Source: a virus. From it: a stretch of DNA of 64,000 bases. Positions 3,591 to 64,000 of this stretch are shown here, piece by piece; the stretch's first letter is position 1, and each line of letters opens with the position of its first letter. The notes under the pieces were generated by a model. The model made no database searches and was not told where the DNA came from. It saw only the letters and a program-made list of their open reading frames with translations. The position numbers were made by a program, and so were the translations under genes. The stretch lies in the IMG/VR virus record IMGVR_UViG_3300047160_020099, positions 1 to 64,000 of that record, one strand, 5' to 3'.

Positions 3591-6500
3591 ATGCCCGACG
3601 TCATTACGCCAAGTCTGATGGAGTCTGCTCCCGTAGAGACTCCCAAGCTGGCCGACCCCAGCCAGATGCGCGAGTTCGGCGACGCTGATGCTACGCGCAA
3701 GGCCATCTACGACAATCTTCTTGTTTCTGCTGGCAAGATCCCCACGGTCAAGAACAAGTTCTACTCCCTCTCCGTCGAGGAGCCACATTATGACGGCCCC
3801 GACCATTACTCTATCGCCGAGCAGAAGAAAGCAATTCTTGAAGGGCGTACGCTCTCACGGCGACTTCGTGGCACCTGGGTTCTGAAGGACAACGACGGCA
3901 AGGAGGTCGAGCGGAAGCTCATGACGTTGGCACAGGTGCCGCACATGACCAACCGCGGCACCTTCATCCTCAACGGCAACGAGTACACACTCTCCCACCA
4001 GATGCGGCTCCGTTCCGGTGTGTTCACACGCATCAAGGAGAACGGTGAGATCGAGTCGCACCTGAACATCTTGCCTGGCAAGGGTCTCTCTCATCACTAC
4101 TTCCTGGAACCAGCGACCGGTATCTTCAAGGTCCAGGTCCGGCAGTCGGCCATGCCGCTCCTACCCTTGTTGCGGACGCTGGGTGTTACTCCCGAAGAGA
4201 TGAAGGGAGCGTGGGGGCCTGACCTGTATGCGGCTAACCAGCTCAAGGACGATCCACGGGTTGTGGACAAGCTGTACGACAAATTCGTCAGCAAGAAGGA
4301 AACCGGGCTGAGCCACCAGGAAAAGGAGCAGGCGGTCAAGAACGCCATCACGGCGATGGAGCTGGACCCGGAGGTCACGTCACGTACTCTTGGCAAGCCG
4401 TACGCACGGCTGGATCGCGACGCAGCACTGGCCACGACGAGGAAGTTGCTCACAGTGAGTCGTGGTGAGATGGAGCCTGATGACCGTGACCACCTGGCCT
4501 TCCAGCACTTCCTTGGGCCAGAGGATCTTTTGGCTGAGCGGATCGGGCGTGATCGTGGTGTCTTGAATCAGTTGCTATGGAGGGCGACAAGTCGGAAGGG
4601 ATTGGCCGGCGTGCAGCCGAACGTCTTCACGAAGCACGTTAACGCTGCAATCATGGATAGTGGACTTGGTCAATCTCTTGAGGAGATAAACGGAGCCGAC
4701 GTGTTTGATCAGCAGACGCGGGTATCGCGGTTGGGGTATGGCGGAATCCCCTGTCATTCTGCCGATACTGAAGTGTTTACAGCAGAGGGTTGGAAGGCGT
4801 GGCCAGCTGTCACGATGGCTGATCGACTCGCCTGCGTAATTGATAGACAGCTAGCTTTCCGCTGTCCGCGACAATTGTTTGCAGAGACTTATAACGGGGA
4901 GATGCTGCAAGCAGTCAATGAGCAGATAGATTACCTAGTGACACCGCAGCACCGTATGTACGTCCTGCCGACTGATGAGCCGGAACCATCGTGGCAGTTC
5001 AAAACTGCGGAAGAGATACACGGTAAATGTGTGTGGCAGCTGTTGGGTAAGGCGGGTCGTAGTATCTCGCAGTTGGCTGGCATTGTCGTTCAACCTGAAC
5101 ACTACCAGCGGATAGCATATGCTGGTCGGGTCTATTGCGCCGAGATCGAAGGCGGGCTCTTGTTGACCAGACGGAATGGCAAACTTCTTTGGTCCGGCAA
5201 TTCCATTGATGCGGTCCCTGATGAGGCCCGCTCAGTACAGCCTTCACATCTTGGATACGTAGACCTACTTCGCACACCGGAATGTTCAGGGCCACTGACC
5301 GAGGTCATGACTAGCAAAGGCTGGAAGTTTTGGCCAACGGTAACAGCCGATGACGAACTGGCCTGCTTGATTGACGACCGTCTTGAGTTCCATAAGCCGT
5401 TGAAGCTCATCGCTGCCGATTACGTCGGCCCGATGTGTGGCGCTCGCACAGATACTCTGGAGTATCTGAATACTCCCAACCATCGGCAGTATGTTCGTCC
5501 GATGCACAAGGGCGCTACGTGGCGAATCGAAACATCCGAGCAAATCGGCACCAAGTCTAGGATCCATCGCACAGGCGGGCATTTGCCGTGGGCCGGCATG
5601 CCCCAGTCCATGTTCGAGCTTCCTGCGATCGAGCGACTCGGCAATCATACGAACACTGTTCCGCCCATTCCGTTTCAGGACTGGGCAGAATTCATGGGTT
5701 GGTATCTCTCGGAGGGGCACTGCACCTATGAGGAGGTGAGGCCTACTTACAACGTAGGTATCTCTCAGAGCCAAGAAGCCAATCCTGAGAACTGCCAGCG
5801 TATCGAAGCGTTACTGGCCCGATTGCCGTTCGCGTGGCACTACAACCGGTCGATGCGATGCTACATCTTGCAGGGCAAGCAACTGGCATCCTATTGCCGC
5901 CAGTTCGGCTACTGCCAGGACAAGTGGATCCCGCGGGAACTGCTTGAAGCCGATGAGCCTACCCGTCGTCTCTTGATGGAGTCGATGCTGCTCGGAGACG
6001 GTCACCGCAGGAACGGAACTTCAAAGCGTGACCGATACGACACTACGAGCGAGAAGCTAGCCCAGGATTTTCAGTGGCTGGCTTTCACACTTGGTATTCC
6101 ATCGCGTATCACACGGAGTGTTGACAAGCGCAAAGAAAGCTATCTGCCGGTCTTCAGTGTCAATCTACATGACCGTACCGAACGGCAGATCCATCAATGC
6201 AATCGCTACACCATCCCGTACAGCGGCAAGGTGTATTGCGCTTCTGTGCCCGGTGGTTTGTTGTACATACGACATGGCGATACTGCCGGACATTGGTCCG
6301 GCAATAGCTTTCGCGTCGGTGTTGACTCCCGCGTCTCCTACGCCGCTCGCAAAGGTTCCGACCGCCGTATCTACACACCGTTCATCGACGCCCACTCTGG
6401 CCAGACCGTCTGGAAGTCGCCGCAGGAAGTAGCCGACTCCGTTATCGGTTTCCAGGATGCAGGCTGGGCTGCCCACGGTCTCGTGCCAGCACAAGTCGCC

Positions 6501-9485
6501 GGCAAGACGCGTATGGTCATGCCGAACAAGATCGACTTCTGGCTCCCTCACATGGAGCAAGCCTTCTCCCCGCTCAATAACCTGGTGCCGCTCAAGTCCA
6601 CGATCAAGGGTCAGCGGGCGGCCATGGCTTCCCGCTTCATCACCCAGGCACTACCACTGAACAAACCCGACGCGCCATTGGTTCGCGGACAGGTGCCTAA
6701 CCGTCCTGGCCAGTCATTCGAGGAGTTCTACGGCAGGTTCATGGGCGCTGTGCAGGCTGCTAACAGCCCAGGACGTGTGGCGTCTGTAACGCCTGACGAA
6801 ATCGTTGTCAAGCACGCGGACGGGACTACAAGGAACTACGAGCTATACAAGACGTTCCCGTACAATCGCAAGACTTACCTTCACAACACCCCACTTGTGC
6901 AAGAAGGCGACCCTGTTCAGCCTGGCCAGTTGCTCGCCAAGAGCAATCAAACCGACGACCAGGGCCACGTCGCCCTCGGCAAGAATCTCCGTGTTGCTTA
7001 CATCCCGTTCCGTGGTGGTAACTACGAAGACGCCTACATCATCTCGGAATCGGCCGCCAAGAAGCTAACCAGTGAGCACATGTATCAACATGTGCTGGAA
7101 TGGGACCCCAGCCACCGTAAGGGTAAGAGGATTTACTCCTCGATCTTCCCCGGCACTTACGACAAGAAGACGCTGGACAAGATGGATGACGATGGTGTCA
7201 TCAAGGAAGGTGAGACCGTTCACTTCAATGACCCGGTCGTTCTGGTCGCTGCCGAACGTGAGTTGTCGCAGAAGCAGATTCACTCGGCACACAAAGGCTC
7301 CTTCGTCGATCGCTCGTTGACATGGGAGCACCACGCCGACGGTATCGTTACCGACGTGGCCAAGACGCCGAAGGGCATTACGGTAGCCATTCGCGGGCTG
7401 GCCCCTTCGAACATTGGAGATAAAATTAGTGGGAGATTCGGCGATAAAGGGGTAGTGTCGCAAATCGTCCCCGACGACCAGATGCCTCACGATGAAGAGG
7501 GCCGCCCGTACGAAGTGCTGGCCAACCCACTCGGCATCATTTCACGCTGCAACGTCGGCCAGGCCATCGAAGCACGTCTGGGTAGGATTGCCGAGCGCAC
7601 CGGCAAGCCGTTCGTCATCGAGGACTTCCCGGCTGACGGTCGCGATATTACCCAGTGGGCAATGGACCAGGTGGCCAAGGCCGGCTTGCCCGACACCGAA
7701 ACGGTCATTGACCCAGCCACCGGCAAGCACATACCTGGCGTGCTGACAGGCAACCGCTACTTCATGAAGCTGATGCATACGGCCGAAGCGAAAGGTCAAG
7801 GCCGTGGTCTTGGTGCCTACACCGCGGAAGACGTGCCGGCTCGCGGTGGCGCCGAGGGCTCCAAGAAATTTGCCATGATGGACCTGCACGCAGTTCTCTC
7901 TCATGGTGCCACGGAAGTTCTCCGCGACGCCAAGCTGGTCCGCGGCCAGAAGAACCAGGAATACTGGTCGAACTACATGAGTGGTTTCCGTCCGCCCACT
8001 CCCAGGCCGCCTATTGTCTACGACAAGTTCATCAACATGCTGAAGGGTGCCGGCATCAACGTCCTTCGCGACGGCCAAAAGATGCGCATCATGGCTCTGA
8101 CGGATAAGGCCATCGACAAACTTAGCGAGGATCGAGAGCTTCAGAACGCCGAAACCGTTGACTGGAAGACTGGCTTGCAACCCAAGAGAGGCGGCCTCTT
8201 CGACGTACACCTGACGGGCGGTCACAGCGGCAACCGCTGGTGCCACATCAAGCTAGTCGAGCCCATGCCGAATCCAGTCATGGAGGAGCCTATTCGCCGG
8301 CTGCTCGGTCTGACGGCCAAGAAGTTCGAGGCTGTCGTGGCCGGACAGGAACAGCTCGACGGGCGTACCGGCCCTGCTGCCATCTCCGCGGCCCTCAACC
8401 GGGTGAATCTGGACCAGGCCATCGAGCAAGCACTGGCCGACGCGAAGTCTGGTCGAAAGACTCTTCGCGATAACGCCATCCGCAAGATTGGCTTCCTGGC
8501 CGGGGCCAAGAAAAATGGCATACACCCTCGCGAGTGGATGCTCTCCAAGGTGCCCGTCCTGCCGCCGCTTTTCCGTCCCGTTTCTGTCATGCAAGGCACG
8601 GGCGGGCAGCTAATCAGTGACGCCAACTACCTCTACAAGGAAGTGTTCGACGCCAACCAGCTACTCGGCCAACTCAAGCAGGCGACGGACGACGTCGGTG
8701 AAGAGCGACTGAACCTGTACAAAGCCTTCAAGGGCGTTACTGGCCTTGGCGAGCCTACACAGCCCAAGAACCAGGAGCGACGGGTCAAAGGCATGTTGGC
8801 CCAGATATTCGGAACGAGCCCCAAGTGGTCGTTCGTGCAGCAGAAGCTGCTCGGCACAGCCGTGGACCTCGTCGGCCGAGCTACTGTCATCCCGAATCCC
8901 GACTTGAACATGGACCAGGTCGGCTTGCCAGAGACTCGTGCCTGGGAGGTCTACACGCCCTTCGTGGTGCGTCGAATGGTGCGTCGTGGCGTGCCCCGTG
9001 TGCAGGCACTGGAGTATGCCAGGGACCATCATGCGCTCGCCCGGCAAGCTTTGATGGAGGAGCTCAACGAGCGGCCGGTGCTGGTCAACCGTGCTCCGGT
9101 GCTGCACCGCTACGGCATGATGGCCTTCTGGCCGCGACTGACCAAGGGAGATGTGCTGCAAGTGCCGCCACTGATTGTGGGCGGGTTTGGCATGGACTTC
9201 GACGGTGACGCTGCCAACTACCACGTGCCTGCCTCCGACGAGGCAAGAGATGAAGCCCTGGCCAAGATGTTGCCGTCGCACAATCTTTTCAGTGTGAGCC
9301 GGTTCCGAGTTCACTATTTGCCCCGGCAAGAATATCTTTCTGGGCTTTGGGCAGCCACGAATGGTGTAAACTCAAAGCAACGCCCTCGGGTGTTTGCCAC
9401 TACCCGGGAAGCAATCGAAGCTTTCAATCGCGGAGAGCTTGAGCCAGGGCAGCGGGTTGAGATCATGGAACACAGCAAGCCCTAA
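3591..9485 (+). CDS. rpoB: Phage multisubunit RNA polymerase: beta fused to the N-terminal (catalytic) part of beta', with two inteins
   Basis: Beta motifs FILNGNEYTLSHQ, GNYEDAYIISE, GDKISGRFGDKG, LANPLGIISRCNVGQ, YFMKLMH; after about 8080, beta' motifs VPVLPPLFRP, LLGTAVDLVGRA, VLVNRAPVLHR and DFDGD (9195-9209). Confidence 0.95.
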   Translation: MPDVITPSLMESAPVETPKLADPSQMREFGDADATRKAIYDNLLVSAGKIPTVKNKFYSLSVEEPHYDGPDHYSIAEQKKAILEGRTLSRRLRGTWVLKDNDGKEVERKLMTLAQVPHMTNRGTFILNGNEYTLSHQMRLRSGVFTRIKENGEIESHLNILPGKGLSHHYFLEPATGIFKVQVRQSAMPLLPLLRTLGVTPEEMKGAWGPDLYAANQLKDDPRVVDKLYDKFVSKKETGLSHQEKEQAVKNAITAMELDPEVTSRTLGKPYARLDRDAALATTRKLLTVSRGEMEPDDRDHLAFQHFLGPEDLLAERIGRDRGVLNQLLWRATSRKGLAGVQPNVFTKHVNAAIMDSGLGQSLEEINGADVFDQQTRVSRLGYGGIPCHSADTEVFTAEGWKAWPAVTMADRLACVIDRQLAFRCPRQLFAETYNGEMLQAVNEQIDYLVTPQHRMYVLPTDEPEPSWQFKTAEEIHGKCVWQLLGKAGRSISQLAGIVVQPEHYQRIAYAGRVYCAEIEGGLLLTRRNGKLLWSGNSIDAVPDEARSVQPSHLGYVDLLRTPECSGPLTEVMTSKGWKFWPTVTADDELACLIDDRLEFHKPLKLIAADYVGPMCGARTDTLEYLNTPNHRQYVRPMHKGATWRIETSEQIGTKSRIHRTGGHLPWAGMPQSMFELPAIERLGNHTNTVPPIPFQDWAEFMGWYLSEGHCTYEEVRPTYNVGISQSQEANPENCQRIEALLARLPFAWHYNRSMRCYILQGKQLASYCRQFGYCQDKWIPRELLEADEPTRRLLMESMLLGDGHRRNGTSKRDRYDTTSEKLAQDFQWLAFTLGIPSRITRSVDKRKESYLPVFSVNLHDRTERQIHQCNRYTIPYSGKVYCASVPGGLLYIRHGDTAGHWSGNSFRVGVDSRVSYAARKGSDRRIYTPFIDAHSGQTVWKSPQEVADSVIGFQDAGWAAHGLVPAQVAGKTRMVMPNKIDFWLPHMEQAFSPLNNLVPLKSTIKGQRAAMASRFITQALPLNKPDAPLVRGQVPNRPGQSFEEFYGRFMGAVQAANSPGRVASVTPDEIVVKHADGTTRNYELYKTFPYNRKTYLHNTPLVQEGDPVQPGQLLAKSNQTDDQGHVALGKNLRVAYIPFRGGNYEDAYIISESAAKKLTSEHMYQHVLEWDPSHRKGKRIYSSIFPGTYDKKTLDKMDDDGVIKEGETVHFNDPVVLVAAERELSQKQIHSAHKGSFVDRSLTWEHHADGIVTDVAKTPKGITVAIRGLAPSNIGDKISGRFGDKGVVSQIVPDDQMPHDEEGRPYEVLANPLGIISRCNVGQAIEARLGRIAERTGKPFVIEDFPADGRDITQWAMDQVAKAGLPDTETVIDPATGKHIPGVLTGNRYFMKLMHTAEAKGQGRGLGAYTAEDVPARGGAEGSKKFAMMDLHAVLSHGATEVLRDAKLVRGQKNQEYWSNYMSGFRPPTPRPPIVYDKFINMLKGAGINVLRDGQKMRIMALTDKAIDKLSEDRELQNAETVDWKTGLQPKRGGLFDVHLTGGHSGNRWCHIKLVEPMPNPVMEEPIRRLLGLTAKKFEAVVAGQEQLDGRTGPAAISAALNRVNLDQAIEQALADAKSGRKTLRDNAIRKIGFLAGAKKNGIHPREWMLSKVPVLPPLFRPVSVMQGTGGQLISDANYLYKEVFDANQLLGQLKQATDDVGEERLNLYKAFKGVTGLGEPTQPKNQERRVKGMLAQIFGTSPKWSFVQQKLLGTAVDLVGRATVIPNPDLNMDQVGLPETRAWEVYTPFVVRRMVRRGVPRVQALEYARDHHALARQALMEELNERPVLVNRAPVLHRYGMMAFWPRLTKGDVLQVPPLIVGGFGMDFDGDAANYHVPASDEARDEALAKMLPSHNLFSVSRFRVHYLPRQEYLSGLWAATNGVNSKQRPRVFATTREAIEAFNRGELEPGQRVEIMEHSKP
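4752..5201 (+). mobile_element. Mini-intein 1 (150 aa, no endonuclease) in RNAP beta
   Basis: Begins CHSADTEVFTAEGW after GYGGIP; block B VTPQHRM; block F VYCAEI; ends WSGN followed by Ser. Confidence 0.9.
5283..6305 (+). mobile_element. Intein 2 (341 aa) with LAGLIDADG homing endonuclease in RNAP beta
   Basis: Begins CSGPLTEVMTSKGW after RTPE; TPNHR; FMGWYLSEG, MESMLLGDG and TTSEKLAQDFQWLAFTLGI blocks; ends WSGN followed by Ser. Confidence 0.92.
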
Positions 9486-9500
9486 CGATAGGAAGTCATC

Positions 9501-10250
9501 ATGTTCAACGGACTGAATCCAGAGCTTATCACGATGGGCCTGCATGCTGTGAGGCGCCGCGAGAAAAGCGGTTTTGTTCCATCGGATGCTGTTGCAGGCG
9601 GACAGCCAGGCGGTGGCGGCGGCGATCCATCAGGTGGTGCTGGTGGCCCTCCGCCTGACCCGTCTGGTGGTGGAGGTGGCGGTCCACCGCCTGACCCGTC
9701 TGGTGGTGGAGGCGGTGGCGGTGGGCCCGGTCCTGGCGGCGTTGACCTTATGTCTGCGTTGCCGCAGATGATCCAACAGCAGATCCAGCAGGCTCTTCAA
9801 CAGAGTGGCATGGTGGGGCAGCCTGGTGTTGCTGGGACTGGTGGCGCTGGCAAGCCACCCAAGCCTGACATCAACACCGTGGCCATGGACCTCTTCCAGC
9901 TCAAGAAGATGTTCCTGCACTTCCTGAAGGTGCAAGGCATCGACCTGCCACCTGACATTCTCGATGGGCCGAACCGCGATCCGTCTACCGGTATGCCGAC
10001 GCCGCCTGACCCGACAGGTGGCATTGGTGGTGCTGGTGGTGGCGGTGGTGGCAATGGTGCTGGTCCTTCCAGTGCCATCAGCCCGGTCCAGCCGATGCAG
10101 GCTGCGTTCCCGACACCGCCAGGTGGTCAGGCCAAGGCGGGTGCGGTCATGCAGCCGCGGGTTGGTGAGGAGATCAACGGCCACAAGATCCTCTCGAAGG
10201 CTGCGGCCGTGGCTCGGATGTGCCGTCAACGAGCAGGGAGTAGCTCGTGA
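9501..10250 (+). CDS. Gly/Pro-rich low-complexity protein
   Basis: 249 aa; PPPDPSGGGGGG repeats around a short helical core. Confidence 0.75.
   Translation: MFNGLNPELITMGLHAVRRREKSGFVPSDAVAGGQPGGGGGDPSGGAGGPPPDPSGGGGGGPPPDPSGGGGGGGGPGPGGVDLMSALPQMIQQQIQQALQQSGMVGQPGVAGTGGAGKPPKPDINTVAMDLFQLKKMFLHFLKVQGIDLPPDILDGPNRDPSTGMPTPPDPTGGIGGAGGGGGGNGAGPSSAISPVQPMQAAFPTPPGGQAKAGAVMQPRVGEEINGHKILSKAAAVARMCRQRAGSSS
9651..9712 (+). repeat. Direct repeat with 36-nt period (coding PPDPSGGGG)
   Basis: ccgcctgacccgtctggtggtggagg at 9651 and 9687. Confidence 0.8.
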
Positions 10251-10492
10251 TCGTCGAGAGTCACAATGGCTTGCACGATCCGTTGAAGGTGCCGGCTACC
10301 CGGGTCCTTGTAACTGGCGACGACGGTACGCCGATCTGCCTAGTAGTGGAATACTCGAAATTACCCCACCCCTGGGTACGAGTCTTTCGTGTCGGGGACA
10401 AGGATTTCAACGAGCAGCTTCATCATCACGGCATCAACAAGACGGTGACGGTCACAAAGATGGCAGGGCAGGGACTGCACTTGCCGGGGTGA
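10247..10492 (+). CDS. Hypothetical protein
   Basis: 81 aa; GTGA overlap with the upstream stop; GGGAG RBS. Confidence 0.7.
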   Translation: MIVESHNGLHDPLKVPATRVLVTGDDGTPICLVVEYSKLPHPWVRVFRVGDKDFNEQLHHHGINKTVTVTKMAGQGLHLPG

Positions 10493-10496
10493 GACA

Positions 10497-12404
10497 ATGC
10501 TGCACGTGACGGCCGGACAACTTGCGGTGAATTCAGTCCTGCCGGAAGACTTGAGGGACTACAACCGGACTCTGGACAAGAAGGGTCTTGAGAAGCTTCT
10601 TCAAGCCGTTGCAGACAAGTACCCAGAAAAATACCGCCAGGTCGTTCATGACCTCTCTCGGCTCGGCTACCACACCGCCTATCTGACCGGTGGCAATTCC
10701 TTCGGCCTTTCCCACCTGCGACAGTCCATGGCCGGTCATAAGGCCCAGGTAGAACTGGAAGATGCTGTCTCCAAGATCTACACGGACCCTACGCTGAAGG
10801 GTCGTGAGAAGGACATGCGGGTTGTGGAGTTGTTGCTGGGCAAATCCAAGGACCTGGAAGACCAGACCTACAAGGAAAGTCTGGCCGAGAACAACCCCTT
10901 CGCTCACCAGGTCCTGTCTGGTGCCCGCGGCAACCCAACCAACCTCCGTTCGTTGCGGGCCGGCGACCTTCTTTACGTTGACCACCACGACAACCCGATA
11001 CCCGTGCCTGTGCTGCACAGCTATTCCCACGGGCTGAGCCCGGTCGAGTATTACGCCAGCACCTTCGGCGCTCGCAAGGGTGTGATCGACGTCAAGTTTG
11101 CCACGCAGGACGCTGGGGCTTTCTCCAAGAATCTCAACCAGATCGCACACCGACTCATCGTCGTCGCACCTGACAACGAAAAAGACCCCACCACAGTCCG
11201 CGGCCTGCCTGTCGAGACTGAAGACCCTGACAACGAAGGTGCTTTGCTGGCCAAGCCAGCCGGCGGCTACCCGCGCAACACGATGCTCACGCCCAAGATC
11301 CTTGGCGATCTCAAGGAAAAGGGCGTGATGAAGCTCCTGGTGCGTAGCCCGATGGTCGGCGGACACGAGACTGGCGGACTGCTGGCCAGAGATCTCGGCT
11401 ACCGAGAGCGTGGTGGTCTGCCTCCTGTAGGCGACTATGTGGGTATCGCTGCCGCACAGGCCCTGTCAGAGCCATTGAGTCAGGCACAGCTGTCGTCCAA
11501 GCACTCGGCCGGCGTTGCGGGAGCTGCCAAGGGTGTTTCTGGCTTCAAGCTGGTCAACCAGCTCGTTCAGGTTCCCAAGACTTTTCGCGGTGGTGCCGCA
11601 CATGCCCAGAAGGACGGACGCGTACAGTCGGTTGAGCCTGCTCCCCAGGGCGGTAACTACGTGACTGTGGACGGGACCCGTCACTATGTTGCTCAGGGCT
11701 TCGAGGTCACTGTGAAGCCCGGCCAGACTGTTGAAGCCGGTGACCTCCTGTCCGAAGGCATCCCCAACCCCTACGAGATCACCAAGCACAAAGGGAACGG
11801 CGAGGGCCGGCGTTACTTCACGGACGCCTTCCGCAAAGCCTTTGCGGACGCCGGCATCGGTGCCCATCGGAGGAATATTGAAATACTCGCGCGTGGCCTC
11901 ATTGATCATGTTCGACTCGCCGACGAGTTCGAACAGTACCAGCCCGGTGATGTAGTCTCCTACTCGCGGCTGGAACACCATTACAAGCCGCGGGACGGCT
12001 ATGACGTGGTGGAGCCGAAGCGTGCCCTGGGCATGTATCTGGAAGCACCAGTCTTGCATTACACGATTGGCACTAAGGTCCGCCCAAGCGTGGTCCAGAA
12101 CCTGGCCGACTTCAGCGTGCCGAGCATTGCCGTACACAAGGACCCACCGCCCTTCGAGCCTGAAATGATCCGTGGTATGGATACGATGTCCCATGACCCC
12201 GACTGGATGACCCGTTTCCTGGGTTCCTACCTTCAGAAGAACCTCTTGAAAGGTACCTACCGGGGTGACGTGTCCGACGAAGCTGGCACGAGCTACGTGC
12301 CGCCGCTCGCCCACGCTGTCGAGTTCGGCCACAAAGGCCTCACAAAGGGCTGGAAACTCGAAGACGTCAAGAAAATGCCCTCCTCTTCCATCATGTCTGA
12401 CTGA
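10497..12404 (+). CDS. rpoC: Phage RNA polymerase beta' C-terminal part
   Basis: SGARGN; bridge helix GLSPVEYYASTFGARKGVIDVKFATQDAG; trigger loop VGIAAAQALSEPLSQAQLSSKHSAG; HRRNIEILAR. Confidence 0.93.
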   Translation: MLHVTAGQLAVNSVLPEDLRDYNRTLDKKGLEKLLQAVADKYPEKYRQVVHDLSRLGYHTAYLTGGNSFGLSHLRQSMAGHKAQVELEDAVSKIYTDPTLKGREKDMRVVELLLGKSKDLEDQTYKESLAENNPFAHQVLSGARGNPTNLRSLRAGDLLYVDHHDNPIPVPVLHSYSHGLSPVEYYASTFGARKGVIDVKFATQDAGAFSKNLNQIAHRLIVVAPDNEKDPTTVRGLPVETEDPDNEGALLAKPAGGYPRNTMLTPKILGDLKEKGVMKLLVRSPMVGGHETGGLLARDLGYRERGGLPPVGDYVGIAAAQALSEPLSQAQLSSKHSAGVAGAAKGVSGFKLVNQLVQVPKTFRGGAAHAQKDGRVQSVEPAPQGGNYVTVDGTRHYVAQGFEVTVKPGQTVEAGDLLSEGIPNPYEITKHKGNGEGRRYFTDAFRKAFADAGIGAHRRNIEILARGLIDHVRLADEFEQYQPGDVVSYSRLEHHYKPRDGYDVVEPKRALGMYLEAPVLHYTIGTKVRPSVVQNLADFSVPSIAVHKDPPPFEPEMIRGMDTMSHDPDWMTRFLGSYLQKNLLKGTYRGDVSDEAGTSYVPPLAHAVEFGHKGLTKGWKLEDVKKMPSSSIMSD

Positions 12405-12416
12405 AAACAGCTCCGC

Positions 12417-12450
12417 TAAATTTCCAACTTCAACGTGTCACTATTACATG
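12417..12450 (+). promoter_or_regulatory. Phage promoter-like motif P1
   Basis: TAAA-N14-GTGTCACTATTACATG. Confidence 0.7.
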
Positions 12451-12509
12451 GAAGTCTCCTAGAGAGTCTGGGAGGCAACAGTTTCGAAACCCTCTTACAG
12501 GAGGTCGCC

Positions 12510-13472
12510 ATGAAATACTTGGCGGGTAGGAATCGCGATCGGCTGTTGGCCCAGTTGCGGGCCGAGATCGCGTTGCCGGCCAACACCGGCAAGGGGTTCG
12601 GCACGGTCGAGACCGTGTGGGGCCGCCAGACCATCGGCGTGGGTGACGGGGCCCTGCTGGCCCTGAACTACGTCGGCCCCCCGGGGACCTCGGCCGCGAT
12701 GGCGCCCAACTACGGGCATCCCGAGCGGCTGGCCATCATCGGCCTCGGGCCGCACTTCGACATGAACGTCCTGGTCGGCGCCCTCGCCCTCAACGGGCGC
12801 AAGCCGCCCGCCCACCAGTCGTTGTACGAACTGTTGGCATTTGTGGACCAGGAGGGTCTGCACAAGATCGGCACGGCCACGCGACCGAGATGGGAGACCG
12901 TGGACCTGGACATCTACAACGCCTTTCGGGTGTGGTCCCGGGCCAACCGCTTTCCGTCGCTGCCCAGCGACGGCACGCCGGTGGACGCGACGAGCCACAT
13001 GGAGGCGGCAACGACCGCGTTCAACACGGCGACGGCCCGCGACGCTGTCATGATCGAGTCCGGTCGGCGGCTCGTGGCCGACGAGGCCCGGCTGAATGGA
13101 GAATCGTACGTCCGGACCTACGGACGAACGATTCTCCGGCGGTCGCCGGAGTTCGTCAACGGTCTCTACGCGGAACCCGGGGGCACGCCCCGGGATGCCT
13201 GCGTGGCCATCAACCCCGACAAGGGGACGGTCATGATCACCGTGCCGTTCCCGATCGCCCGCCGGTACCCCAACATCAGCTGCGCGAGCCTCGCAACGCA
13301 GTTGTGGGGCTCGCGGGCGACGGGCCGCGAGGACGTGGCCAACTCGCCGCAGGGACAGCTCCTGAATGAGTCCCACGCGGAACAGGCCGCCGTGGAGCTG
13401 GACCGTCAGCTCCAGATGGCCAGCGGGGTCACGCCCACCTCCGCCGGGGCGCCCACCACGGCCGGGGCCTGA
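12510..13472 (+). CDS. Hypothetical protein, possibly a degenerate DHH/DHHA1-like fold
   Basis: ATG after AGGAGG; GC visibly higher than its neighbours; weak resemblance to phage DHH-like proteins (recalled, not searched). Confidence 0.6.
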   Translation: MKYLAGRNRDRLLAQLRAEIALPANTGKGFGTVETVWGRQTIGVGDGALLALNYVGPPGTSAAMAPNYGHPERLAIIGLGPHFDMNVLVGALALNGRKPPAHQSLYELLAFVDQEGLHKIGTATRPRWETVDLDIYNAFRVWSRANRFPSLPSDGTPVDATSHMEAATTAFNTATARDAVMIESGRRLVADEARLNGESYVRTYGRTILRRSPEFVNGLYAEPGGTPRDACVAINPDKGTVMITVPFPIARRYPNISCASLATQLWGSRATGREDVANSPQGQLLNESHAEQAAVELDRQLQMASGVTPTSAGAPTTAGA

Positions 13473-13550
13473 TCGTCGAATTCGCCGGCCACTTGCCCAC
13501 CACCGCGGCCGGCGCCCGTACGTGCCCCACTTGGAGTGGGGCAAAGAGGG

Positions 13551-13591
13551 GGACCCGGTATGCTGCCCCAGCAGCGTACCGGGTCTTTTTT
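13551..13591 (+). terminator. Intrinsic terminator
   Basis: GACCCGGTATGCTGC/GCAGCGTACCGGGTC stem followed by a T run. Confidence 0.85.
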
Positions 13592-13596
13592 AGCTA

Positions 13597-13629
13597 TAAA
13601 ACCACTCATTGTTGTGGCATTATTATGTG
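13597..13629 (+). promoter_or_regulatory. Phage promoter-like motif P2
   Basis: TAAA-N13-GTGGCATTATTATGTG. Confidence 0.7.
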
Positions 13630-13688
13630 ACATGGGTAACCCTGCCAAAGCGGCGGGAACCCGTCCCTCTGATAGAAGGAGTCAAGAC

Positions 13689-14132
13689 GTGGTGGAAATC
13701 CGTGACCCTCTCCAGCGCCATTTCGTGGCACTGGTGGAGGAAGGTCGTCTGCTGACCGAACGGGTCAGTAAGGCGACTGAGGTAGCCGAGCGGATTGCTC
13801 GGCTGGAGCAGGAGCTTGCCGAGGCGAAGAAGGAACTCGGCGAGTTGGTCCAGCCGGCAGTGACGCCGGCCAAGATTTCGTCGGCCCTGGCGGACGCCTG
13901 TCAGGGGAAGACGGGTCCGCAGCCAGGAAACCTGCGGTGGGCGATCTTGCGTGAGCTGAGGGAAAGGGGACCGCTCACTTCCAGGCAAGTCTTTCACAAC
14001 TTGCGTAGGGAGTTCAAGGCCAAGTTGCGTGGCGAGAAACCCCAGCAGCGGATCTACAGTGAGCTCTACCAGCTGAAAAACGTCGGACAGATCGTCCGAG
14101 AGGACGACGGGAGCTACGCTCTCGTCGAGTGA
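13689..14132 (+). CDS. Coiled-coil plus winged-helix putative DNA-binding protein
   Basis: GTG after AAGGAG; heptad region then LRWAILRELRERGPLTSRQVFHNL...IYSELYQLKNVGQIVREDDGSYAL, a wHTH pattern. Confidence 0.65.
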   Translation: MVEIRDPLQRHFVALVEEGRLLTERVSKATEVAERIARLEQELAEAKKELGELVQPAVTPAKISSALADACQGKTGPQPGNLRWAILRELRERGPLTSRQVFHNLRREFKAKLRGEKPQQRIYSELYQLKNVGQIVREDDGSYALVE

Positions 14133-14140
14133 TATCGACA

Positions 14141-14179
14141 GGCGGGTCCGGACTCTGTTCCGGACCCGCCCGTCTCTTT
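14141..14179 (+). terminator. Hairpin terminator
   Basis: 12-bp perfect stem GGCGGGTCCGGA/TCCGGACCCGCC followed by a pyrimidine tail. Confidence 0.75.
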
Positions 14180-14319: not shown

Positions 14320-14871
14320 ATGCATGTTCTCGTGACTGGACCTTCGGGAGCCGGAAAATCTACCTTCGCTCAGACCCTGGCGAAGGTACGAGGTTTGCCC
14401 GTCTGCAACCTCGATCGGGATACTGTCTGGCGGCAGTACGTGGACGAGGACAAGGACGCGTTCCGCCGGCTGATCATGCGGCAGGACCCGGCCTCCCGTG
14501 AATACGCCAGGCTCAAAGAGGCGCAGGAGGAGGTGGTCAACCGGGCGCTCAAGCAGGGACCCTCGATCATCGAGGGCTGTCAGCTTCTGGCGTTCCCGAT
14601 GCTGACTCGTCTCTATGAGACATTCCTGCTGACGCCGCCAATGCCTGTAGTTCTTGCCCAGAGGATGGAGCGCAAGAAGCGGCACAGAGTCGAGCGTGGT
14701 GAACCTCCCATGGCCAGGGAGGAGGAAGAGCGCGCTGCGGAGTTTTCGGCAGCGCTATACCGCTCCATGGAAAAGGAGGTGGCGAGCTTCAAGCAGCGAC
14801 CTGGAGTCACGGTGATCTACTCGCCGCGATATGTCGCTGCAAGAATGCGGGCTCGTCCTGAAGGTGCGTAA
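14320..14871 (+). CDS. P-loop nucleotide/nucleoside kinase-like protein
   Basis: N-terminal VLVTGPSGAGKST Walker A; IIEG strand; LAQRMER lid. Confidence 0.8.
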   Translation: MHVLVTGPSGAGKSTFAQTLAKVRGLPVCNLDRDTVWRQYVDEDKDAFRRLIMRQDPASREYARLKEAQEEVVNRALKQGPSIIEGCQLLAFPMLTRLYETFLLTPPMPVVLAQRMERKKRHRVERGEPPMAREEEERAAEFSAALYRSMEKEVASFKQRPGVTVIYSPRYVAARMRARPEGA

Positions 14872-38557: not shown

Positions 38558-39538
38558 ATGACAGAGACATGGAAATCGCCGTTGGGTAAACGACCGAGAA
38601 CTTACAGTCCAGAATTCGAGCAAACAGTTTTACAAGCGTTCCGCGAGGGAAAATCCGCTTCAGATATCGGTCGCGAAACAAATAAGCCGGCTTACTTGAT
38701 TCGGCTCATTCTGCAACGGTTTGGACTTAAAGCATCCGTGAATCAGCGGAGAGGACCACAAGGAAAACCACCAGAGACCCAACAAGCTATCGTGGTTTTT
38801 TATCAGGAGCCTCATACGATTCACGCAACAATGGAGCGCTTTGGCATGTCATATGGAGGTATTCGCAAGATACTGTCCAAAAATAATGCGCTTCGTGGTG
38901 ATGAGGGTCGCCGAGCTTTTAGTCCAGACGAAGTAGCTGAAATGAAAAGGCTGTTTCTGGCTGGCACGTCGCTCTGTGAAATAGCTGAGCAATTCCACAC
39001 ATGCGCACGAACAACGGAACGCTGGCTACACGAGAACGGTGTTGAACTTCCGGTTAAAAAGGATCAGCGACGTACAGAATTAGCCGAAGGGGTGGCCGAG
39101 GCAATCAAAGCATTGTGGGCTGACGGCAATAACACCGGTACGATCGCAGAAGCGTGTGGATTGAAACGAGGAGCGGTGATCTGGTTTATACGACGCGAGG
39201 GATTGAGTCGTCCACGTAAAGATGGCCGTATTTTCCATCGCAGAGATGGTTATTGGTACATTCTTGTTCGCGCGGACGATCCTATGCACGCTATGGCTAA
39301 TACCAATAGCTATGTCCTTGAACACCGCCTCGTCGTGGCCCGCCACCTCGGCCGTCCGCTGACCCGGCACGAAACCGTTCACCACATCAACGGTGACAAG
39401 AACGACAACCGGCTGGACAACCTCCAGCTTCGCCACGGCAACCATGGGACTGGAATCGTTCTCCAGTGTCGCTGCTGTGGCTCAACCGATATCACCGAAC
39501 GACCTTTGGCCGTCAGTGAACTTAAACCAGGAGATTGA
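38558..39538 (+). CDS. HNH homing endonuclease with tandem HTH repeats
   Basis: YVLEHRLVVARHLGRPLTRHETVHHINGDKNDNRLDNL; four HTH-like units; lower GC than neighbours. Confidence 0.88.
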   Translation: MTETWKSPLGKRPRTYSPEFEQTVLQAFREGKSASDIGRETNKPAYLIRLILQRFGLKASVNQRRGPQGKPPETQQAIVVFYQEPHTIHATMERFGMSYGGIRKILSKNNALRGDEGRRAFSPDEVAEMKRLFLAGTSLCEIAEQFHTCARTTERWLHENGVELPVKKDQRRTELAEGVAEAIKALWADGNNTGTIAEACGLKRGAVIWFIRREGLSRPRKDGRIFHRRDGYWYILVRADDPMHAMANTNSYVLEHRLVVARHLGRPLTRHETVHHINGDKNDNRLDNLQLRHGNHGTGIVLQCRCCGSTDITERPLAVSELKPGD

Positions 39539-63294: not shown

Positions 63295-64000
63295 ATGGAC
63301 TCGTTACTTGAGCCTGAATTCAAGCAACCGTTTGAGCTCTGGAAGCAGGACCCAGGCCCGCATACGGCTGGTCCTTTCCTGGCGGCCATCGACCCGGTGC
63401 TGCAGTCCGCCATACGGACTTATGGAGGTAGCCGGCCCAGCACGGCGCTGCATAGCCACGCCAAGTTGCTGGCACTCGATGCCGCGGCTCGCTACGACCC
63501 ATCACGGGCGAAGCTGCGTACCCATCTGATGACCAATCTCCAGGGCCTGCGACGCATCGGCGCCCGGCAAACGCAGATCATCTCCGTGCCGGAAAGAGTC
63601 GGTCTGGACCTGCATCGGTTGCATATTGCCAACCAGGAACTGCACGATCGGCTTGGTAGGGAGCCTTCGGACGCCGAGCTTGCTGACCACACGGGGCTGT
63701 CTCTGAAGCGGCTGACGCACATTCGCAGGGCTCGTCCCGGCTTTGCCGAGAGTCAGCTCGTATCGCGACACGAGGACAGTGAAACGACCTTCAACCCAGC
63801 GGTGACAGACACGGGCGATGACACCTGGGTCAACTTCGTCTATCACGACCTGCAGCCGACGGACCAGCTCATTCTCGAACACATCCTCGGCCTGCATGGC
63901 AAACGGGTCTTGTCAAAGCAACAGATAGCAGCCAAGCTGAAGTTGTCGCCTGGTGCTATCAGTCAGAGGGCTGCTAAGATCCAGATGATGCTGGACAAAC
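63295..64000 (+). CDS. Sigma-70 family (FliA/WhiG/SigF-like) RNA polymerase sigma factor, 3' end outside the window
   Basis: Own translation: region 2 ALDAAARYDPSRAKLRTH, IISVPER; region 3 ELHDRLGREPSDAELADHTGLS; region 4 LQPTDQLILEHILGLHGKRVLSKQQIAAKLKLSPGAISQR. Confidence 0.88.
   Translation, partial: MDSLLEPEFKQPFELWKQDPGPHTAGPFLAAIDPVLQSAIRTYGGSRPSTALHSHAKLLALDAAARYDPSRAKLRTHLMTNLQGLRRIGARQTQIISVPERVGLDLHRLHIANQELHDRLGREPSDAELADHTGLSLKRLTHIRRARPGFAESQLVSRHEDSETTFNPAVTDTGDDTWVNFVYHDLQPTDQLILEHILGLHGKRVLSKQQIAAKLKLSPGAISQRAAKIQMMLDK

Follow-up and report, generated by a model that had tools for sequence, protein, structure and literature searches.

A phage RNA polymerase locus in which beta is fused to the front of beta-prime and the remainder of beta-prime is a separate chain

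We analyzed a linear IMG/VR record of 161,936 bp from an uncultured soil phage (IMGVR_UViG_3300047160_020099; 78% complete according to CheckV). The first 64 kb of this record, referred to here as the window, contain a locus for a cellular-type multisubunit RNA polymerase. A single gene at this locus encodes the whole of beta joined to the N-terminal part of beta-prime (beta'N), two small genes follow it, and a further gene encodes the C-terminal part of beta-prime (beta'C). A sigma-70-family gene lies at the far end of the window. The coordinates of these genes and of the features within them are given in Table 1.

Table 1. Features of the polymerase locus and the sigma-70-family gene (positions in nucleotides; aa, amino acids)
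Feature	Position	Strand	Details
Beta-beta'N fusion precursor gene	3591..9485	+	1964 aa; 1473 aa without both inteins
Intein 1, 150-aa mini-intein	4752..5201	+	aa 388-537, after GYGGIP; Cys1, TPQH block B, SGN|S
Intein 2, 341 aa, LAGLIDADG endonuclease domain	5283..6305	+	aa 565-905, after LLRTPE
Beta barrel motif GDKISGRFGDKGV, bearing catalytic lysines	7416..7454	+	aa 1276-1288
Junction of beta C-end and beta-prime N-start	8037..8099	+	aa 1483-1503; aligned with position 1337 of E. coli beta and with the beta-prime N-terminus
DFDGD Mg-binding triad of beta-prime	9195..9209	+	aa 1869-1873
Gap gene 1 (P0002)	9501..10250	+	Gly/Pro-rich N-terminal half, conserved C-terminal domain; AGGAAG ribosome-binding site ahead of ATG
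Gap gene 2 (P0243)	10247..10492	+	81 aa; directly upstream of beta'C
Beta'C gene	10497..12404	+	635 aa; Rpb1_5, E 2e-17; zero cysteines
Bridge helix in beta'C	11067-11153	+	Sequence motif/alignment
Trigger loop in beta'C	11451-11522	+	Sequence motif/alignment
Sigma-70-family gene	63295..64026 of record (window holds 63295..64000)	+	Arash gp10 homologue, E 8e-12

The fusion gene is one uninterrupted frame from the ATG at 3591 to the TAA at 9483 to 9485, and its start codon sits 2 bases past the TGA of the preceding gene. Pfam domains of both subunits were identified in the same translated protein: Rpb2_6, the beta barrel, at aa 1058 to 1411 (E value, 6e-49), followed by the beta-prime domains Rpb1_1 at aa 1636 to 1698 and Rpb1_2 at aa 1825 to 1891 (E, 4.8e-21). 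Bacterial beta chains in the PDB matched the fusion chain with an E value of 6e-55. Once both inteins are removed, residues 104 to 1000 of the spliced 1,473-aa chain align to Escherichia coli beta 115 to 1337, without the two large insertions found in E. coli beta, and residues 1096 to 1472 align to E. coli beta-prime 174 to 557. The DFDGD triad was invariant in 29 homologous sequences, although the two residues ahead of it in the window are GM (GMDFDGD) rather than the NA of NADFDGD.

At the junction, the last beta strand (GINVLR) is followed by a DGQ turn and then by KMRIMAL, the counterpart in the alignment of the first conserved beta-prime strand. Because the end of beta is joined to the start of beta-prime by this three-residue turn, both double-psi barrels, the DFDGD triad, and the clamp helices are placed on one chain. 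We modeled aa 906 to 1964 of the fusion chain with AlphaFold2, without beta'C (mean predicted local distance difference test score [pLDDT], 71.5; predicted template modeling score [pTM], 0.49). In this model, the junction forms a helix, a beta-hairpin, and a second helix at a pLDDT of 67 to 87. The beta part was confident, but the C-terminal segment of beta and the beta-prime active-site region were not; the pLDDT of the active site was below 50, as expected given that beta'C was absent. All Foldseek matches to the junction model were bacterial beta chains (E, ∼1e-41), which added nothing new on the junction. An earlier reading of the window, made from its sequence alone (here, the sequence-only reading), had described a whole beta running in frame into beta-prime through DFDGD, both catalytic barrels in a single chain, and a junction at 8040 to 8100. 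Each of these statements agrees with what we found, including the position of the junction as measured.

The same reading had assigned the bridge helix and the trigger loop to a separate gene about 1 kb downstream, and the beta'C gene, which begins 1,011 nucleotides after the stop codon of the fusion gene, indeed contains both. Its product aligns to bacterial beta-prime 659 to 1171 (E, 1.7e-34). On E. coli beta-prime numbering, the fusion chain ends at ∼556 and beta'C begins at 568 to 569. The cut site is identical in the window, in Salmonella phage Arash, and in Vibrio phage D181 (∼551 to 556 on one side, 568 to 569 on the other), which argues for one ancestral cut. Judged by Pfam scores (64 bits for the window, 84 for YerA41, and 53 for AR9), the beta'C of the window is no closer to the cellular enzymes than that of YerA41 and marginally closer than that of AR9.

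The fusion chain and beta'C also differ from the bacterial subunits in their zinc sites. The N-terminal zinc ribbon of beta-prime (E. coli C70, C72, C85, and C88) is deleted throughout the family of relatives described below, whereas it is kept in bacteria and in phages RHph_Y65, Va2, IME392, and YerA41. Because the beta'C of the window is without any cysteine, the second zinc site (E. coli C814, C888, C895, and C898) has also been lost there; the four cysteines of this second site are retained in Arash and Vibrio phage D181. A free-standing gene for an AAA_18/AAA_33 P-loop kinase lies 2 kb downstream of beta'C (14320 to 14871), and in some relatives (among P0337, P0362, P0363, P0138, and P0139) beta'C itself carries a fused domain of this kinase type or a NUDIX domain. 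This association may point to a connection in function or packaging.

The two-chain layout is shared by hundreds of phage lineages and is not a one-off. The alignment to Arash Gp206 (1,525 aa) extends through the junction, and over the full length of the spliced chain the two proteins are 31% identical (1,556 columns). A search with aa 1250 to 1964 of the fusion chain identified at least 1,035 clusters at 90% identity, and the best 120 of those clusters all had PF00562 and PF00623 in one protein. With HMMER and a 201-aa segment spanning the junction, we recovered 1,060 representatives at 50% identity, 428 of them at E values of ≤1e-30. The best 150 of these representatives mostly matched the full segment in one stretch, the exceptions being a few short fragments and three proteins with two stretches. 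The junction-segment search drew in no ordinary bacterial beta or beta-prime, and thus the segment is a signature of this family. None of the 150 best junction representatives carried beta'C in the same chain, and neither beta nor beta'N was found in the same chain in any of the 120 best "longer" relatives of beta'C (0/120). Stand-alone beta'C proteins (∼625 to 640 aa) formed at least 2,079 clusters. Relatives at 37 to 70% identity share the gene order, with the fusion gene followed by 1 to 3 kb of small genes and then beta'C. Contigs of the family reach ∼235 kb and come from many habitats, and cultured members include Arash and the Vibrio phages D69, D148, and D181.

Family contigs of 115 to 226 kb (L028 to L045) were also present inside species-representative metagenome-assembled genomes (MAGs) labeled Gemmataceae, Dependentiae, Pacearchaeota, Sediminibacterium, and others. 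These contigs are probably whole phage genomes that were mis-binned, and for that reason the MAG labels are unsafe for host assignment. An alignment-based search for related loci returned only members of the polymerase family in MAGs and zero bacterial rpoC genes, and in a search of plasmid records, all rpoC matches were chromosomal. The bacterial reference sequences used below (eight bacteria from six phyla) were drawn from such records mislabeled "plasmid."

A phylogenetic tree of beta'C (IQ-TREE, LG+C20; 31 rows and 567 columns) placed the window, 14 metagenomic members, Arash, and D181 in one clade (support, 99/96) and the eight bacteria in another (100/99). The phages RHph_Y65, Va2, IME392, and YerA41 fell beside Bacteria (96/95), and phiKZ and AR9, each sampled by its non-virion-type beta'C, were on long separate branches. 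The tree of beta'N gave the same picture (support of 94 for the family and 99 for the bacteria). At the level of these sequences, the trees show the family as a distinct lineage outside Bacteria, the phages with an unsplit beta-prime, and phiKZ/AR9; both trees are unrooted, with a small bacterial sample and long branches, and they show a separate clade, not its donor nor the number or direction of captures. Nesting within phiKZ-like enzymes, which the sequence-only reading had named as a result that would speak against it, was not seen.

The whole record contains a single beta/beta-prime set, as does the complete Arash genome, and no second set was found in the 161,936 bp. We searched the 162-kb record, with its 78% completeness, for alpha (PF01193) and omega (PF01192) and found neither at an E value of ≤1, in a search that detected the positive controls in 14 of 14 genomes. 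This extends to the whole record the absence of alpha and omega genes that the sequence-only reading had reported for the window. Its description of a "minimal" enzyme overlooks the phage sigma-70-family factor, which matches phrog_351 (sigma factor) and scores 29.2 bits, above the cutoff, with the Pfam profile Sigma70_r3; the Sigma70_r2 profile had no match in the record.

Twelve genes are detectably common to the record and Arash by BLAST, mostly in the Arash gene order. A colinear stretch runs from the polymerase genes via the structural genes gp218 and gp222 to genes of the tail region, and sigma and the large terminase are shared as well; tail- and head-closure-like genes are also carried in the window. 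In Arash, the polymerase genes are neighbors of the portal gene within the virion module. Mass spectrometry of Arash virions recorded 3,516 spectra for Gp206, the highest count and above that of the major capsid protein, with 100% coverage, together with 1,210 spectra for Gp216 and 100% coverage of the sigma factor Gp10 (PMC10585845).

The boundaries of the two inteins in beta were set by alignment to five intein-free homologues, all of which are without both inserts. Both fit the class 1 intein pattern (Cys1, TP[Q/N]H block B, a C-terminal Asn, and Ser at +1), and the LAGLIDADG_3 signal in intein 2 is slightly under the Pfam cutoff. The inteins are paralogous (45% identity over 92 aa; E, 1e-23), and intein 1 looks like a copy of intein 2 minus the endonuclease. 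They are spaced 27 residues apart. Their insertion sites correspond to the GPGG and ETPEG motifs in E. coli beta, and because the inteins lie inside conserved beta motifs, the unspliced protein should be inactive. The closest intein-bearing relative (P0006) has a single intein at another site. The median length of junction-bearing representatives was 1,986 aa, compared to ∼1,470 aa for intein-free chains, which suggests that genes of this family very often carry inteins. Such frequent inteins make the fusion gene family a good system for intein ecology.

The 1-kb gap between the polymerase genes consists of two conserved genes with their own start signals, which rules out an intron or frameshift linking beta'N to beta'C. 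The C-terminal domain of the first gap gene is 38 to 55% identical, at the same position, in relatives L010, L011, and L029, and homologues of the second occur at the equivalent position in these three and in L030. Both gap genes are kept in relatives down to ∼55% beta'C identity. Neither P0002 nor P0243 had a match in Pfam, PHROG, or ESM-Atlas, and a Foldseek search with the AlphaFold2 model of P0243, which has three strands plus a helix (pLDDT, 69), gave no match with an E value under 1. A hidden alpha or omega in the gap genes thus found no support in these searches. Candidate roles for the gap gene products are those of an accessory subunit or of a co-packaged protein.

Further along the window, positions 12435 to 13544 hold overlapping long open reading frames on opposite strands (345 aa on the plus strand and 349 aa on the minus strand) with no family match, in the part of the window where GC content is highest (63.7%). 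A 12-bp GC-rich hairpin at 14141 to 14170 follows the gene at 13536 to 14132, and a smaller hairpin at 2117 to 2136 precedes the gene at 2215. These hairpins could bound a transcription unit holding the polymerase genes, with the caveat that terminator-like sites overall were not above chance. An HNH endonuclease gene (38558 to 39538; phrog_20891; E, 1e-23) lies amid the tail genes.

Taken together, we interpret the locus as encoding the phage's only multisubunit RNA polymerase core, composed of two chains, used with the phage sigma factor, and carried in the virion; we assign this interpretation a probability of roughly 0.6. In the mechanism we propose, the 1,964-aa precursor would lose its two class 1 inteins to yield the 1,473-aa chain, and the separately made 635-aa beta'C would supply the bridge helix, the trigger loop, and the secondary-channel side. 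Split cellular enzymes still assemble when cut in this region (∼556|568). The covalent hairpin link between beta and beta-prime may take over part of the scaffolding and assembly role of alpha, and the phage sigma factor would provide promoter recognition. If the Arash proteome is a guide, core and sigma would be packed in the capsid, injected, and begin transcription without the host polymerase. Newly made enzyme would then continue with the later genes, since it is the only polymerase encoded.

It is important to note that several points weigh against this interpretation. Alpha is retained in Helicobacter even though its beta and beta-prime are fully fused, and host alpha or omega could be recruited by the phage enzyme as well. 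It is also conceivable that the phage sigma acts on the host core and not on the phage enzyme. The AlphaFold2 model is mediocre, in its pTM and in the active-site region. The penultimate residue of the inteins is Gly instead of His, and splicing is only predicted. At 78% completeness, the record leaves room for an alpha-like gene, another polymerase, or another sigma in the part of the genome that it does not cover. Finally, packaging is inferred from Arash, which is 26 to 32% identical, the window itself offering the colinear virion module, and the authors of the Arash study concede that enzymes abundant inside the cell could be carried over into virion preparations (PMC10585845).

In a rival reading, the phage core would assemble on a host alpha dimer, perhaps with omega, to form a hybrid enzyme. 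The phage has no alpha or omega gene of its own, its beta and beta-prime are nearer the bacterial subunits than those of phiKZ are (bacterial chains in the PDB matched at E values of 1e-34 to 1e-55), and the cellular beta-beta' fusions (PMC7483510) are found in bacteria that keep alpha. We nonetheless consider a hybrid unlikely, though deserving of serious attention: an enzyme injected from the virion would need alpha brought from the previous host cell, the phiKZ and AR9 cores are active without alpha (PMC7598289), and the hosts of the family are very diverse (Salmonella, Vibrio, and soil and freshwater bacteria), such that one conserved interface with the alpha of each host would be demanding.

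Another arrangement would have the enzyme made only after infection, for middle and late genes, with the host polymerase, perhaps redirected by sigma, reading the early genes. The virion data are limited to the distant Arash, where carry-over is allowed for by the authors (PMC10585845), and many large phages have sigma factors that function with the host core (PMC7824862). However, the position of Gp206 at the top of the Arash virion spectra with sigma alongside, and the location of its gene inside a virion module that is colinear in the window, make an unpackaged enzyme improbable in our judgment. The contig is metagenomic, and an artefactual junction was named as fatal by the sequence-only reading itself, but we found no support for a fusion or split created by faulty assembly or gene calling, or for a gene in decay, and dismiss this reading: the junction is continuous in the cultured, fully sequenced Arash (Gp206 peptide coverage, 100%) and in the ∼1,000 independent cluster representatives (1,060 in all), the catalytic motifs are intact, and the intervening genes are conserved.

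Beyond a two-chain core that is carried in the virion with its sigma factor, a stronger proposal can be made only tentatively, and we rate it at somewhat less than even odds. Here, beta-beta'N, beta'C, and sigma would form a zinc-free three-chain holoenzyme, independent of alpha and omega, that is packaged, injected, and sufficient for the transcription of the whole phage, with the beta-beta' link replacing the alpha scaffold. If true, this would be the smallest known sigma-dependent polymerase of the cellular type, from a lineage that matches the bacterial one in depth. Phage multisubunit polymerases have so far been understood through phiKZ and AR9, with their many pieces and no sigma, and through the crAss-type enzymes. 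With ∼1,000 clusters at 50% identity, the family is at least as widespread as either, and it is much nearer the bacterial enzyme, yet repartitioned, with both barrels on one chain, zinc sites lost, and a true sigma present. If active alone, it would be a natural minimal sigma-dependent polymerase for work on structure and mechanism and would test the need for alpha and omega. Host-independent early transcription (the rifampicin question) is open to study in the cultured Salmonella phage Arash.

Both elements of the layout are known singly in cells, and phage multisubunit polymerases are known; the combined phage layout was not found described, as our full-text literature search returned no account of a phage polymerase with a fused beta-beta'N and a separate beta'C. 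Among cellular enzymes, beta-prime is split into rpoC1 and rpoC2 in cyanobacteria and plastids. The cut in the window lies within roughly 12 to 25 residues of the cyanobacterial cut (residues ∼9 to 12 of cyanobacterial RpoC2 align with residues 21 to 23 of beta'C), and, going by alignment coordinates, the cyanobacterial cut appears to fall just after the TTxGR motif, not before it. Fused or split cellular enzymes keep alpha, omega, and the zinc sites, and we know of no cell that combines a beta-beta' fusion with a split beta-prime. Fusion of rpoB to rpoC occurs in Helicobacteraceae and Wolbachia, and the C-terminal end of Helicobacter beta is joined directly to the N-terminal start of beta-prime (PMC7483510, citing Zakharova 1999).

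The mReC enzymes (Weinheimer and Aylward 2020, PMC7481178) are recognized, like those of the window, by cellular beta and beta-prime profiles, and likewise form a deep branch outside Bacteria. They are listed as two proteins, a separate beta (∼900 to 1,520 aa among the entries compared here) and an unsplit beta-prime (∼900 to 1,390 aa among the same entries), and their defining features are a beta and a beta-prime on different proteins, neither shorter than 800 aa, with NADxDGD in beta-prime (PMC7481178). In contrast, the chains of the window are fused, its beta'C has 635 aa, and its motif reads GMDFDGD, so that it falls outside this definition. Rhizobium phage RHph_Y65 and Vibrio phage Va2, which have an unsplit beta-prime and keep the zinc ribbon, cluster beside Bacteria.

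Like the window, phiKZ and AR9 encode a phage multisubunit enzyme without alpha or omega in which beta-prime is cut after the catalytic barrel, and one form of their polymerase is packaged in the virion (PMC7598289, PMC7824862). However, their beta is in two to three pieces, and they have two paralogous sets (virion and non-virion) and no sigma-70, whereas the window has an undivided beta continuous with beta'N, and the record has a single set and a sigma gene. The view of the sequence-only reading that phiKZ-like enzymes are split differently is therefore correct for beta but not for beta-prime, which is cut in the same inter-domain region (PMC7598289), the exact residue differing in our alignment. 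By alignment, the cut relative to that of the window is ∼40 residues earlier in IME392 and ∼70 to 110 residues later in YerA41, its placement in AR9 and phiKZ being uncertain.

The nearest described counterparts are Arash Gp206, Gp216, and Gp10 (OQ632216) and their homologues in Vibrio phages D69, D148, and D181, which have the same fusion, the same cut, and the same loss of the zinc ribbon. The Arash paper labels the proteins beta and beta-prime and makes no mention of a fusion (PMC10585845). The fusion gene of Vibrio phage D181 (3830 to 9344) consists of two parts, of 514 and 1,006 aa, separated by a homing endonuclease gene; either the chain has been split again or an intron-like element has been inserted. 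Arash resembles the window also in its single polymerase set, its sigma homologue, and its colinear virion module, but at an identity of 26 to 32%, and it is without inteins where the window has two. Further, the gap between the polymerase genes spans 4.7 kb and nine genes in Arash, compared to 1 kb and two conserved genes in the window.

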